DNA of 64,000 bases from Parcubacteria group bacterium (GCA_016203945.1 JACQLT010000001.1:6645-70644); one strand, 5' to 3'. Shown: positions 30,102 through 38,391, counted from the first letter of the stretch. Program-made: numbers and translations. The notes: generated from the sequence alone by a model not told the origin.

Positions 30102-30196
30102 ATCTATTTGCAACAAAAGACCGGGTACTCACCCGGCCAACACCGCGAGTACTCGGACAATCAATTCCTTATGAGGCTGCGCTCCACATCCCCATA
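30102..30196 (-). promoter_or_regulatory. rplC 5' leader with terminator/antiterminator-like elements
   Basis: ccgggtgagtacccgg + tcttttgtt 10 nt before ATG; upstream cgagtactcg can pair with gagtac of the hairpin. Confidence 0.4.
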
Positions 30197-30202
30197 CAAA
30201 CC

Positions 30203-30231
30203 AGTGTAGAAAACTTCCGCCCAAATGTCAA
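30203..30231 (-). promoter_or_regulatory. internal promoter for rplC-rplD... operon
   Basis: TTGACA-17-TACACT; phased A-tracts upstream. Confidence 0.55.
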
Positions 30232-30293
30232 CACCTTCTTGCACCTTCTTGTCCGGGACAAGGAAAAACAAGGAAAAAAACAAGGATAGAACC

Positions 30294-30314
30294 AAAACGC
30301 CCCTTTCGGGGGCG
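30294..30314 (-). terminator. intrinsic terminator after rpsJ
   Basis: cgcccc-cgaaa-ggggcg followed by TTTT on minus strand. Confidence 0.65.
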
Positions 30315-30359
30315 CTGGCTTCCCGCTCATCCTTGACTCAGTCAAGGATGAGTCAAGGA

Positions 30360-30698
30360 TTAGACGGTTTTGATTTCGATGTCTACTCCGGCCGGCAAAT
30401 TGAGGTTTCCTAAGGCGTCGATGACTTTGGGATTCGGATTAAGAATGTCTATGAGGCGCTTGTGCACTCTCATCTCAAACTGCTCCCGAGCATCCTTGTG
30501 CACGAAGGAAGAGCGGTTGACGGTGTATTTCTTGATCTCGGTGGGAAGGGGTACGGGACCTACGATTTGACATCCCTGGCGCAAGACGGCTTCCGCGATC
30601 TGCTTGCAGGAAGCGTCAATAACCTTGTGGTCGTATGCCACAATGCGGATTCGTAGTTTCTGTGAAAGAGCTTCTTTTTCTGCCCGCTTTGCCACCAT
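30360..30698 (-). CDS. rpsJ: 30S ribosomal protein S10
   Basis: [15 protein letters not shown]...GPVPLPT. Confidence 0.93.
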
Positions 30699-31962: not shown

Positions 31963-32187
31963 TCATTCTATCGGCAAATCGTCAAGGGTAAACTCTTCTT
32001 CGGGCGGCTGCGCTGTATCGTTCTCCATGCCGTTGTTTCCGTTATTCCCATTGAGAGCACGATTCATCCCCAGCCCCTGCCTATCGTATTCTTCGAAGGG
32101 AAGGATGACGAGGGTCGGCTTTCCGTCTTCCACGATAATAACCCGCTCTCCGTTTCTGATGAGGTGTTTGACGTCTTTCAAGTCCAT
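31963..32187 (-). CDS. small Phd/YefM-like antitoxin-fold protein with acidic tail
   Basis: 74 aa; ERVIIVEDGKPTLVILPFEEY resembles Phd/YefM core; Asn/Gly linker; tail EEEFTLDDLPIE; ATG 1 nt after fusA stop. Confidence 0.45.
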   Translation of the reverse strand: MDLKDVKHLIRNGERVIIVEDGKPTLVILPFEEYDRQGLGMNRALNGNNGNNGMENDTAQPPEEEFTLDDLPIE

Positions 32188-32188
32188 G

Positions 32189-34297
32189 TTACCTGCGCTT
32201 TCCCTCAATAATCTCCTGGGCGATAGAGGGAGGAACTTCCTCGTATCGGTCAAACTCCATGGTAAATGTCCCTCGTCCCTCTGTCAATGAGCGGAGAGAG
32301 GTGGCATACCCGAACATTTCAGAAAGGGGTACCTTGGCGTGCACTATCTTCATCTGCAGCCGATCTTCGGTGTCCTGAATGGCAGCCCTCTTTGCAGAAA
32401 GGTCCCCGATGACGTCTCCGAAGAAATCAGCAGGGATTAACACCTCAAGCGCCATGATGGGCTCGAGCAGCACGGTCTGCGCCTTCCTGGCCGCCGCCTG
32501 CAGAGCCATGGAGGCTGCGATCTTAAAAGCGATTTCTGAAGAATCCACGTCGTGATAGCTGCCGTCAAAGAGCGTTGCCTGCACGTCAATCATAGGGTAT
32601 CCGGCGAGCACGCCTTTGTCCAATGCTTCCTTCACTCCTTTTTCCACCGCGGGAATGTACTCCCGGGGAATTGATCCTCCTTTGATTTCATCTACGAACT
32701 CAAATCCCTCCCCTCTCAACTTCGGAGCAAGTTTGAGCCATACGTGTCCGTATTGGCCGCGGCCTCCAGACTGCTTGATGTATTTGCCCTCGGCCTCTTC
32801 TTCCTTTTTGATGGTTTCTTTGTAGGCAACCTGGGGGCGGCCGATGTTCGCCTCCACGTTAAACTCGCGCTTCATGCGGTCCACAATGATTTCCAAATGA
32901 AGCTCTCCCATGCCAGCGATAAGGGTTTCTCCTGTTTCCATGTCAGAGCGAACCCTGAATGTCGGGTCCTCGTCAGAAAGGCGCTTGAGGGACATACCCA
33001 TGCGCTCCTGGTCGGCTTTGGTCTTGGGCTCAATGCGAATGGAGATGACGGGCTCGGGGAACGAAATCTGTTCTAAGAGTAAGGGAGCCTGCTCGTCGCT
33101 GAGCGTGTGTCCCGTGGACGTGTTCTTGAGGCCGATGGTGGCTGCAATGTCTCCTGCATAGAGATCTTCCACTTCTTCCCGTTCGGCTGCATGCATACGC
33201 AGTATCCTGCTGATGCGCTCTTTTTCCTGGGTCGTAGTATTCAAAATGTACGAACCCTTCTTGAGCGTGCCCGAATACACCCTAAAGTACGTGAGGGTGC
33301 CGACGTACGGGTCTGAAGCCACTTTAAACGCAAGAGCTGAGAAGTGTTCTTCATCTAAGGGTTTGCGCTCTTCTTCTGCTCCGGTTTTTGGATTCGTGCC
33401 CTTGACCGGAGGAAGATCGGCGGGGCTGGGAAGGTAATCGGCTACCCCGTCCAGCACAAGCTGCACTCCCTTGTTCTTCAGGGATGACCCGCAGAATACG
33501 GGGACCAATGTTCCCGTCAGGGTCCCCTTGCGGATGACGCGCTTTACATCCTCGACCTTGAGTTCTTCTCCTGCCAGATAGGCTGCAAGAAGCTGTTCGT
33601 CTTCTCCCGCTATCTTTTCCAGCAGTCGGCTCCGCCATTCCTTGGCTGACTCTACATACTCTGCCGGAATGTCGCGCTCCTCCACTTGGCGCCCCATTTC
33701 TCCTTCAAAGAAGTATGCCTTCTGCCTCAGAAGGTCAATGATGCCTTCAAACTTCTCTTCTTCCCCAATCGGAATCTGCAAAGCTATTGCGTTGGGAGTG
33801 AGTTTCGTGAATACGGAGTTCAGGCTCTTCTCAAAGGACCCTCCCATGCGATCCAATTTGTTGATAAAACAGATGCGGGGAACGTGGAACTTGTCCGCCT
33901 GGTGCCATACGGTTTCAGACTGGGGCTCCACTCCTGCCACGCCGTCAAACACGACAACGGCCCCGTCCAGCACGCGCAGGGAACGCTGCACTTCTGCGGT
34001 AAAATCAATGTGGCCGGGGGTGTCAATGATGTTGATGCGGTATTCATTGCTCTTGGAACGATCCTGAACATACGTGGGCGTCCAGAAGCAAGTCGTCGCG
34101 GCCGAGGTAATGGTGATGCCGCGCTCGCGCTCCTGAGCCATCCAGTCCATGATAGCCGCCCCCTCGTGCACCTCCCCTATCTTGTGGGAAATGCCCGTGT
34201 AAAACAAAATGCGCTCGGTTGTCGTTGTTTTCCCGGCGTCAATGTGCGCGATGATTCCGATATTCCGGTATTTTTCTATGGGATATTGTCTGGGCAT
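32189..34297 (-). CDS. fusA: elongation factor G
   Basis: [18 protein letters not shown] motifs; 702 aa. Confidence 0.97.
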
Positions 34298-34303
34298 ACT
34301 TAT

Positions 34304-34319
34304 GCGAAATGAGCAAATG
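34304..34319 (-). repeat. 16-nt direct repeat copy A' just upstream of fusA ATG
   Basis: gcgaaatgagcaaatg, identical to 34419-34434 (last codons of rpsG). Confidence 0.9.
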
Positions 34320-34414
34320 TCGCTTCGCTCCTTAATAACCTTCGGTTTTTAATATTTTTCCACCACGGGAGGATACCCAATCCTCCCGACCCCTCCTGTG
34401 ATTTGCTCATTTCA

Positions 34415-34879
34415 CTAAGCGAAATGAGCAAATGCTCTGTTGGCGTCTGCCATGCGATGCACGTCTTCCTTTTTCCTGAACGCCGTCCCCTCCTTCTTGG
34501 ACGCGAGTAAGATCTCTTCTGCGAGCTTCTGGGCCATGGGCTTTCCCTTCTGGGAACGGGCGGCTCCAAGAAGCCAACGCAATGCCAAACTGAACTTCCT
34601 GTTCCCCTTCACCTCAACCGGCACCTGGTAGGTTGCTCCTCCAATGCGGCGGGACCTCACCTCCACAAAAGGAGAAATATTCTCCATCGCGAGCTGAAAT
34701 ATTTCCAGGGGCTCTTTTTTGCTCTTCTCTTTGATCAAGGCAAAAGCTCCGTACACGATCTTTCTCGCAACGGATTTCTTTCCCCGTTCCATGACATGGT
34801 TGATAAGCTTTGAAACGATCACATCTTGGTATATGGGGTCTGGGTGGATGAGCCGGGGGGGTGTTTTTCTGCGAGCCAT
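34415..34879 (-). CDS. rpsG: 30S ribosomal protein S7
   Basis: MARRKTPPR...ANRAFAHFA. Confidence 0.95.
34419..34434 (-). repeat. 16-nt direct repeat copy A (rpsG 3' end)
   Basis: gcgaaatgagcaaatg; pairs with inverted copy 34401-34413. Confidence 0.9.
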
Positions 34880-34913: not shown

Positions 34914-35324
34914 TTACTTGGATTGTTTAGATCCATATTTCGAGCGCTCCTGCTTTCTTCCTTCAACTCCAGCGGCATCCAGCACGCCGCGCACAATGTG
35001 ATAGCGTACGCCAGGAAGGTCTTTTACCTTTCCTCCTCGAAGCAATACTACGGAGTGCTCCTGGAGGTTGTGACCTTCTCCGGGAATATAGGCCGTGACT
35101 TCCGTACCGTTGCTCAAACGCACCCTGGCTACTTTGCGCAAGGCCGAGTTGGGCTTCTTTGGAGTCGTGGTAAACACGCGCAAGCACACTCCGCGCTTAA
35201 ACGGGGCAGGAAACTCTACGGGCCGGTTTTGCAAAAGGTTAAACCCAAACATCAACGCGGGCGCCTTGGATTTCTTCTTGGCCCTTTGTCGCTCCTTTTT
35301 GATGAGTTGATGAATCGTCGGCAT
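34914..35324 (-). CDS. rpsL: 30S ribosomal protein S12
   Basis: Start [12 protein letters not shown]; [16 protein letters not shown] motif. Confidence 0.95.
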
Positions 35325-37066: not shown

Positions 37067-37140
37067 CGGGGCGTAGTATAATGGTAGTACGCGAGGCTGG
37101 GGGTCTTGCAGCTCGGGTTCGATTCCCGACGCCCCGACCA
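37067..37140 (+). tRNA. tRNA-Pro (anticodon GGG), CCA encoded
   Basis: Hand-folded cloverleaf: acceptor CGGGGCG/CGCCCCG with C1-G72 and A73 (Pro identity), D stem GTAT/GTAC, anticodon arm CGAGG-CTGGGGG-TCTTG with G37, T arm TCGGG-TTCGATT-CCCGA. Confidence 0.85.
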
Positions 37141-38354: not shown

Positions 38355-38391
38355 ATAAAATACCCGCGAGAGCCAAGCAGTTGGCTCTCGC
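38355..38391 (-). terminator. strong hairpin ending candidate sRNA, 22 nt before HD gene ATG
   Basis: gcgagagccaa-ctgc-ttggctctcgc (11 bp) then gggtatttta. Confidence 0.5.

Follow-up and report, generated by a model that had tools for sequence, protein, structure and literature searches.

The 117-nt spacer between the str operon genes rpsG (ribosomal protein S7) and fusA (elongation factor EF-G), in a 64-kb window of DNA from a Parcubacteria group bacterium (Patescibacteria; Parcubacteria/Paceibacterota), is likely, with a probability of roughly 0.7, to be a lineage-specific and recently acquired insertion of a member of a small (~95-nt) dispersed repeat from a narrow group of Patescibacteria. 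The window is the whole stretch of DNA analysed, and the genes concerned lie on its minus strand. As far as comparison of sequences can show, the spacer is an insertion that is polymorphic for presence or absence and has been transferred horizontally, its core is dispersed at the protein level, and a pair of inverted copies, X'...X, brackets the core in every context in which it was found. The three-part repeat at the S7 stop and EF-G start is best read as the signature of this insertion, i.e. a duplicated gene end plus a short inverted copy, and not as an evolved switch.

Architecture of the rpsG-fusA spacer

The str operon runs on the minus strand from the end of rpsL at 34914 through rpsG (34879..34415) to the start of fusA at 34297, and Pfam supports the S7 and EF-G identity of the genes on either side of the spacer. 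The rpsG product has 154 amino acids (aa) and the C-terminus ...ANRAFAHFA, followed by the stop TAG (34417-34415) and then an in-frame TGA. An earlier note on this DNA, made from the sequence alone, had drawn attention to a 117-nt separation of the two genes and to a three-part repeat with hairpins. The separation is borne out (34298-34414, with the fusA ATG at 34297-34295), the hairpins are where the note had placed them, and the direct, inverted and direct copies were recovered there by a repeat search. On the RNA strand the order is CAUUUGCUCAUUUCGCU-UAG-U-GAAAUGAGCAAAU-(82-nt core)-AUUUGCUCAUUUCGCAUAA-GU-AUG, with the following features (ORF, open reading frame; L083 is a relative carrying the same spacer and L090 a further relative).

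34416..34434, minus strand: proximal copy D1, the last rpsG sense codons (A-FAHFA) and the TA of the stop; its 13-nt arm X is 34421-34433
34415..34417, minus strand: rpsG stop TAG, with TGA next in frame, at the tip of hairpin 1
34401..34413, minus strand: X', the inverted copy of X (GAAATGAGCAAAT), which pairs with proximal X (hairpin 1, 15 bp as RNA) or distal X (a 13-15-bp basal stem around the core) and holds the mini-ORF ATG
34320..34400, minus strand: element core (CACAGGAGGGG...GGAGCGAAGCGA), 79/82 identical to the L083 copy with C 34319 counted; its translation recurs in other contexts
within the element core, minus strand: core stretch CAGGAGGGGTCGGGAGGATTGGGTNTCCTCCCGTGGTGG, an example of the core sequence
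34366..34388, minus strand: hairpin 2, 9 bp (CGGGAGGAU-UGGGU-AUCCUCCCG), encoding SGGLGILP in the element frame and nearly invariant among the copies found
34301..34319, minus strand: distal copy D2 (CATTTGCTCATTTCGCATA, FAHFA + TAA), which with AGT-ATG is the stop-start junction of relatives without the element
34300..34410, minus strand: mini-ORF of 36 codons, with its ATG 4 nt past the rpsG TAG and its TAA 2 nt ahead of the fusA ATG; a hypothetical coupling relay
34281..34297, minus strand: fusA start and co-imported tract (ATGCCCAGACAATATCC), common to other element-bearing alleles and ~45-50 nt long in L083 and L090

The direct repeat is exact over 16 nt (34304-34319 and 34419-34434) and reaches 19 nt with one mismatch (34301-34319 and 34416-34434). 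It had been described as an exact duplication of the last 16 nt of rpsG, which holds for the match and its sites, but the 16-mer ends 1 nt before the stop codon and it is the 19-nt version that takes in the TA of the stop. FAHFA-stop is read from the fusA-proximal copy as well (GCA TAA), with GU-AUG next, a point not made in the earlier note. No further occurrence of the 16-mer was found within the window. X' is complementary to both direct copies at 13 of 13 positions, and at 94% over 16 nt to the rpsG-proximal one. The proximal copy abuts X', and the two form a near-perfect 33-nt palindrome around the rpsG stop codon; the rpsG-proximal palindrome is the longest perfect short-loop palindrome of the window. 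The internal hairpin and the AAGGAG reported between the repeats are both present, but the stem has 9 bp rather than 8 (CGGGAGGAT/ATCCTCCCG, 34366-34374 and 34380-34388) and the AAGGAG (34333-34328) lies 30 nt, not about 33 nt, 5' of the fusA ATG.

Empty and filled junctions among relatives

The best match to the window S7 among species representatives is 66% identical and comes from a Nealsonbacteria metagenome-assembled genome, the top matches all being from Patescibacteria; the protein itself is identical to P0123 (MBI4122792.1). In a set of 80 diverse bacteria, rpsG and fusA lie anywhere between 2 nt and more than 200 nt apart, so that spacer length alone is unremarkable. Close relatives were gathered by S7 protein search and reading of the encoding contigs. 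The junction is empty (2-6 nt) in ten relative contigs, representing seven distinct sequences, with S7 75-98% identical to that of the window. The relatives, with their S7 compared to the window and their rpsG-fusA spacer, are as follows; the S7 of L099 is the same as that of L097/L098.

L093/L094: S7 with 3 aa differences, spacer 6 nt
L095/L096: S7 with 4 aa differences, spacer 6 nt
L081: S7 96%, spacer 2 nt
L089, L091, L092: S7 94-95%, spacer 2 nt
L082: S7 90%, spacer 4 nt
L088: S7 75%, spacer 4 nt
L097/L098: S7 with 26 aa differences (~83%), sister of L083, spacer 4 nt
L090: S7 94%, spacer 34 nt
L083-L087: S7 82%, spacer 117 nt

The empty junctions read ..TTY GCA TAA GC ATG, which is the distal copy of the window together with the fusA start, and the extra 115 nt were therefore inserted between a stop and a start that in the ancestral state lay 2-6 nt apart (..TTY GCA TAA GY ATG). 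That junction survives as the fusA-proximal copy. Presence and absence are polymorphic with intact empty sites, both between L083 and L097, whose flanks are 97% identical, and between the window and L093/L095. The full spacer is carried by one other lineage only, L083-L087, five assemblies of one strain that are 99.6-100% identical; as the same architecture recurs in these independent assemblies, an assembly artefact is ruled out.

Much larger rpsG-fusA inserts, of 0.7-2.5 kb, occur in other Patescibacteria (L008 4474-5320, L009 4453-5169, L010 4429-5406, L020 4151-6717, L042 4435-6234). They encode unrelated ORFs, among them membrane-like proteins and, in L020, an NlpC/P60-like and peptidase-like pair, and show that the rpsG-fusA link is often broken in the phylum. 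The idea of a homing-endonuclease hotspot at this junction was set aside.

Horizontal spread and a deletion derivative

Between the window and L083, rpsG is 74% identical, fusA 77% and the four-fold degenerate sites 44%, whereas the spacer is 93% identical and its 82-nt core matches at 79 of 82 sites. At the neutral rate, three or fewer differences in 82 core sites would have a probability of 1e-24; for the overall rate of these genes it would be 8e-7. The spacer is thus far more alike than the flanking genes, which argues for horizontal spread and not for vertical conservation.

The comparison of L083 with L097, which lacks the element, points the same way. The two are 96-97% identical at the DNA level across rpsL-rpsG-fusA (88% at four-fold sites), and identity falls to 0.69-0.85 only in the first ~60 nt of fusA, with 11 synonymous differences in 15 codons. 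This fusA 5' tract of L083 resembles that of L090 and, over its first 17 nt, that of the window. Similar local dips of identity were seen between the window and L093/L095, and between L090 and L081, so the element has been brought into at least three lineages along with a variable stretch (17-50 nt) of donor fusA 5' sequence. Homologous recombination or a gene-conversion-like process has probably moved it between lineages at rpsG-fusA, and would leave just such a co-imported tract.

L090 is a deletion derivative: 81-83 nt between two TA dinucleotides are missing, and with them X', hairpin 2 and the A-rich part. The 3' module GGAGCGAAGCGA and the distal copy are still there, as is the imported fusA tract.

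The translated core recurs in other contexts

The 36-aa reading of the spacer was searched against 1.84 billion representative proteins, and a small profile against 5.8 billion; the further contexts of the core are accordingly known here from translated ORFs, not from DNA. The matches are short ORFs of 64-83 aa that share the core peptide (Q/K)EGSGGLGIL(P/Q)WWKN...(K/R)NRR(L/C/F)L and have quite different flanks. In addition to rpsG-fusA, the translated core is found in at least four contexts. Context X comprises six variants (P0133, P0143, P0138, P0139, P0144 and P0140) with the common tail EWWYQMKE..EFWQEAKKLF... In P0134 the tail TFWFSAEEIFDYKRAEEDIMF is the C-terminus of a nucleoside diphosphate kinase (NDK), 81% identical to the product of the ndk gene of the window (E = 1e-8). 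P0141 represents a further context, and P0142 and P0145 read the same core DNA in the other two frames, again with different flanks. Long variants of the core have 9-12 additional residues in the A-rich middle.

In each context the four residues that precede the core correspond to the four that follow it, read in antisense: EMSK/FAHF at rpsG, ENQN/FWFS at ndk (enumerated), IPPF/EWWY in context X and IAPP/GGAM in P0142. An inverted repeat of 11-13 nt, X'...X, specific to each locus, therefore brackets the core each time. The family-wide pairing is that of X' with distal X, the stem that the earlier note had regarded as the alternative, and it closes the element into a stem-loop. Hairpin 1 is present at rpsG because the duplicated target segment there is just 19 nt long, so that the proximal copy abuts X'. 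Judging by the translations, the 3' flank of the core appears to be a copy of the C-terminal coding sequence of the host gene, in the host frame. The direct duplication is 19 nt at rpsG and would be ~63 nt or more in the NDK context, to go by P0134; against the 19 nt at rpsG, duplicated gene ends elsewhere would measure roughly 60-100 nt.

Several searches for further traces of the element were negative. The core is not present 3' of ndk in the window, though P0134 shows it at that place in a relative. No match was found in IMG/VR by exact 28-mer or degenerate protein scan, as might have pointed to a virus origin, and Pfam gave no match to the ORFs of the element. Host proteins that run into the element in either of the two remaining frames were also looked for, and one short ORF only, P0142, was found.

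Downstream of ndk, between it and the HD-domain gene of the window, there is an 11-bp perfect palindrome, GCGAGAGCCAA-GCAG-TTGGCTCTCGC, at 38366-38391. The rpsL-rpsG junction is also polymorphic for hairpin-bearing insertions among the relatives. In L083 (1552-1657) it is 106 nt long and includes a GC-rich stem of 12 bp, CCCCGCCCTCTA/TAGAGGGCGGGG; the 97%-identical sister L097 (1708-1728) lacks it. In L089 (433-490), L091 (1788-1845) and L092 there is a 58-nt rpsL-rpsG spacer with a ACTATATG/CATATAGT stem enclosing TCGCTTCGCTC, the reverse complement of GAGCGAAGCGA in the rpsG-fusA element. This is an exact match of 11 nt, inverted, to the 3' module of the element and possibly a fragment of it, and 8 of 2000 shuffles were as good.

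One alternative to a dispersed element is a local replication accident, i.e. a small inverted triplication or template switch at the rpsG stop that was later spread by homologous recombination only. The direct-inverted-direct order is the architecture of small inverted triplications (PMC13334657), template switching makes perfect hairpins (PMC8794818) and the X-T-X' palindrome is near perfect; the spread at rpsG-fusA does look recombinational, given the co-imported fusA tract. However, the 82-nt core has no source in rpsG or nearby sequence on either strand, and the same core, in translation, stands beside other genes (the NDK tail, context X, P0142). Derivation of the core by tandem duplication of the rpsG 3' end was tried and rejected: the best local alignment, of 12 nt with one mismatch, was equalled by 174 of 2000 to 263 of 1000 shuffles, and L083 gave no signal. 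We consider such an accident improbable as an account of the spacer, and prefer the insertion of a dispersed element.

RNA structure and the case for a switch

In the earlier note it was suggested that the repeat could be an RNA switch. Under this reading, hairpin 1 and the stem between X' and the fusA-proximal copy would be mutually exclusive states that tune fusA translation according to S7 or to ribosome traffic on rpsG. Folding with RNAfold gave a stable structure: the 171-nt region has z = -4.75, with 0 of 200 shuffles as stable, and the element alone z = -4.86, so that the structure is not due to chance. The hairpin described at the rpsG stop exists, with 15 bp rather than 13 and a UUA loop, the G of UAG being paired rather than looped out. 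Both stems are perfect in both carriers and both pairings are physically possible, as that note had stated; all four positions that vary between the carriers preserve them. Between the window and L083, two compensatory double changes and one change from G-C to G-U affect hairpin 1, one double change and two G-U changes the alternative stem, and one change from U-A to U-G hairpin 2; every position stays paired. When the rpsG end is forced single-stranded, as under a ribosome blocking proximal X, the alternative stem reaches P = 0.93-0.95 in both species.

At equilibrium, however, hairpin 1 forms almost always (P = 0.99) and the alternative stem practically never (P ~0), the two states lying ~17 kcal/mol apart in free energy, and the accessibility of the AUG region is hardly altered by the alternative stem (0.56 vs 0.49). 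Compensatory changes were seen, but they come from two independent sequences, which give them no statistical weight, and the covariation scores were equalled by 121 of 500 shuffles for hairpin 1 and 258 of 500 for the alternative. Template switching can moreover create or restore perfect, matched arms in one event (PMC8794818). With two sequences and possible templated mutation, the covariation was not counted as evidence for a switch.

The relatives also speak against it. The closest of them lack the spacer, with no compensating structure at the 2-6-nt junction, which is the finding that the earlier note had named beforehand as fatal to its proposal, and L090 is without X' and hairpin 2. X'...X bracketing recurs at unrelated genes and is thus a property of the element, not of fusA control. 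The S7 operator of E. coli sits elsewhere, between rpsL and rpsG, where rRNA-like motifs bind S7, and is found in Gammaproteobacteria only (PMC3616713). The switch is, in our judgement, very unlikely, the least probable of the alternatives weighed here. As a fallback the same note offered the scar left by an insertion of ~100 nt that duplicated 16 bp of its target. This reading is supported, and extends to a dispersed, horizontally spreading element in place of an inert one-off.

In both carrier alleles it is the deviation from a perfect palindrome that creates the rpsG TAG, which indicates selection for correct S7 termination. Rfam at the gathering threshold found only a tRNA (37067-37137) in the whole window, the spacer giving no more than noise at E <= 10. 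Neither a promoter (-35/-10) nor an intrinsic terminator (GC-rich hairpin plus U-tract) was found in the spacer.

Initiation signals and coupling

The 19 gene starts between 24.6 and 39.2 kb are mostly AU-rich upstream, with no recognisable Shine-Dalgarno (SD) sequence (including tuf, rpsG, rpsJ, rplC, rpsC and rplP), and fusA of the empty-site relatives likewise has none. This suggests that the organism may initiate translation independently of SD sequences and rely heavily on coupling. In a genome so poor in SD sequences, GGAGG/CCTCC and AAGGAG are unlikely to be ribosome-binding or anti-SD signals, a role that was rejected here, most of the 19 starts being without SD and the AAGGAG lying 30 nt from the ATG. 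The same scarcity of SD sequences tells against the switch.

At a TAA-GC-ATG junction fusA probably relies on termination-reinitiation, and a 115-nt insert would break such coupling. The insert may be tolerated because rpsG keeps its own stop and ribosomes could still reach the original stop beside the fusA AUG, maybe by way of the mini-ORF. Ribosomes ending rpsG would melt hairpin 1, restart at the mini-ORF AUG and arrive at the original stop by the fusA AUG, so the mini-ORF might relay translational coupling from rpsG to fusA.

Another possibility is that the mini-ORF is a genuine small protein gene, and that conservation of the spacer reflects selection on its 36-aa peptide. Its frame is open from 4 nt past the rpsG stop to the original stop; the window and L083 differ by four synonymous changes, one I/V and one K/E; and 10 ORFs of different contexts share the peptide EGSGGLG(I/V)L(P/Q)WWKN...NRR without change, insertions in the middle preserving the frame. 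On the other hand, ~20% of shuffles also have the frame open by chance, with an ATG in phase by a further one-in-three chance, and this ATG exists only as the complement of the His codon in X. The ORF was not called by gene callers in L083-L086, has no Pfam match and is absent from L090, so it is not indispensable. There is also an ascertainment bias, as the copies were found by searching that frame, and P0142 reads the same DNA in other frames; the N- and C-terminal residues are by-products of target duplication. We regard a small protein gene as unlikely. The chance of an open frame, its loss in L090 and the bias of the search leave the relay weakly supported too, although other copies likewise hold the frame in phase with the tail of the host gene.

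The mini-ORF frame is also open upstream into rpsG, giving an 89-aa ORF in the +1 frame (34300-34569, minus strand) with the same FAHFA-stop end as S7. It is probably a by-product of the duplication, and no evidence was found of frameshifting into it.

A model for the insertion, and points against it

An insertion of the dispersed element would give the order observed: the full rpsG end with its stop, the 13-16-nt X', the 82-nt core with its 9-bp hairpin, the duplicated rpsG end and then fusA. Transposition would duplicate a variable length of the 3' end of the target gene and make a short inverted copy of the start of the duplication.

A number of points weigh against this model. No transposase or other mobilising enzyme is linked to the element, and to our knowledge no transposition mechanism gives a fixed-length, target-derived inverted repeat together with a variable direct duplication. 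No second copy of the core was found in the window or in the loci of the relatives compared (blastn with word size 7, and tblastn), so that a multi-copy status in this genome is conjectural. A complete proximal gene end before X' is read at rpsG only, the other contexts being known as translated ORFs. The very high identity of the core could in principle reflect selection on function, and X' tracking the rpsG end of each host, with its two compensatory double changes, would also fit a selected RNA hairpin.

A bolder version, rather unlikely as a whole, is that of an undescribed family of Patescibacteria elements of ~95-125 nt, which would insert at gene 3' ends in tightly coupled, SD-poor operons. 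They would be translationally transparent by virtue of the regenerated host end and stop, the target-derived 11-13-nt inverted bracket that loops the element out, and an open frame in phase with the duplicated end. Ribosomes would get to the original stop through a relay ORF or else, conceivably, by shunting or hopping over the stem. A variable direct duplication plus a fixed-length inverted copy of its start would also be a new chemistry of insertion.

Comparison with known systems

The element resembles the miniature inverted-repeat transposable element (MITE)-like repeats (Correia/NEMIS of Neisseria, RUP, ERIC) in being ~100 nt long, non-autonomous and hairpin-forming through inverted repeats, in apparently occurring at several loci by gene ends, in its presence/absence polymorphism in close relatives and in being co-transcribed in operons. 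Unlike those repeats, its brackets are locus-specific and target-derived (11-13 nt) and not terminal inverted repeats encoded by the element, it has no fixed short target duplication (19 nt here, apparently 60 nt or more at ndk), and no partner transposase is known for it. Target duplications that are long and differ between copies, as they appear to do for this element, have one well-documented precedent only, IS1549/IS1634, with direct repeats of 8-514 bp (PMC2266710). These, however, are autonomous insertion sequences (IS) of 1.5-2 kb, with terminal repeats of their own and a DDE transposase, and they show no inverted copy of the target. The direct-inverted-direct order, the perfect arms and the apparent compensatory changes, which can arise in one step, are shared with template-switch hairpins and small inverted triplications (PMC8794818, PMC13334657), but the element holds a foreign 82-nt core whose translation recurs at other loci. 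Neither the IS1549/IS1634 type of duplication nor an inverted triplication accounts for a foreign core together with a fixed-length, target-derived bracket.

The E. coli S7 operator belongs to the same operon (rpsL-rpsG-fusA-tuf) and likewise involves a dependence on translational coupling; the spacer considered here lies between rpsG and fusA instead, and nothing comparable is conserved in these organisms. The bypass of phage T4 gene 60 and the mitochondrial byps are similar in being mobile inserts in a translated region, and UUC GCU UAG is here matched by UUC GCA UAA 115 nt downstream, with the stop right after the last sense codon and both of them within a hairpin, the stop at its tip; the matched sequences on either side of the gap could act as sites of take-off and landing. 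These are sequence features, and the likeness goes no further than resemblance: S7 is complete before its stop, bypass is unnecessary and the gap is 115 nt rather than 50. A Rickettsia palindromic element (RPE) is also a small palindromic selfish element by coding regions, with an open frame in phase with host codons, but RPEs are translated within host proteins, whereas rpsG ends before the element and no long host protein was found to read into the core.

Other features near the operon

A 243-nt spacer follows rpsJ (window 30117-30360, minus strand), between the rpsJ stop at 30360 and rplC. It starts with a three-part repeat of its own (TCCTTGACTCA, TCCTTGACTGA and inverted GTCAAGGATGAG) and a 12-bp hairpin (30326-30352), followed by a terminator-like GCGCCCC-GAAA-GGGGCG-UUUU, CCTTGTTTTT repeats and a promoter-like TTGACA-17-TACACT site. 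Its sequence is unrelated to the rpsG-fusA element.

Between fusA and tuf there is a small ORF (window 31963-32253, minus strand) of 74-96 aa, depending on the start chosen (..VIIVEDGKPTLVILPFEEY..), an odd tenant of the str operon. Its match to the Phd/YefM antitoxin in Pfam stays below threshold (21 bits, the cutoff being 29.8; E = 2e-4). Relatives have an ORF of 62-74 aa without Pfam match at the same place.

Implications

Recognition of the striking repeat around the S7 stop and EF-G start as an insertion signature removes a tempting false-positive regulator. In the tiny genomes of Patescibacteria few mobile elements have been described. The small repeat considered here sits in a highly conserved and tightly coupled translation junction and has passed between lineages whose synonymous sites are saturated. 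Should its unusual signature also be found in the DNA of the other loci, the insertion mechanism would fall outside the current IS and MITE classes, and the junction would show, as a natural experiment, how translational coupling copes with 115 nt of inserted DNA.

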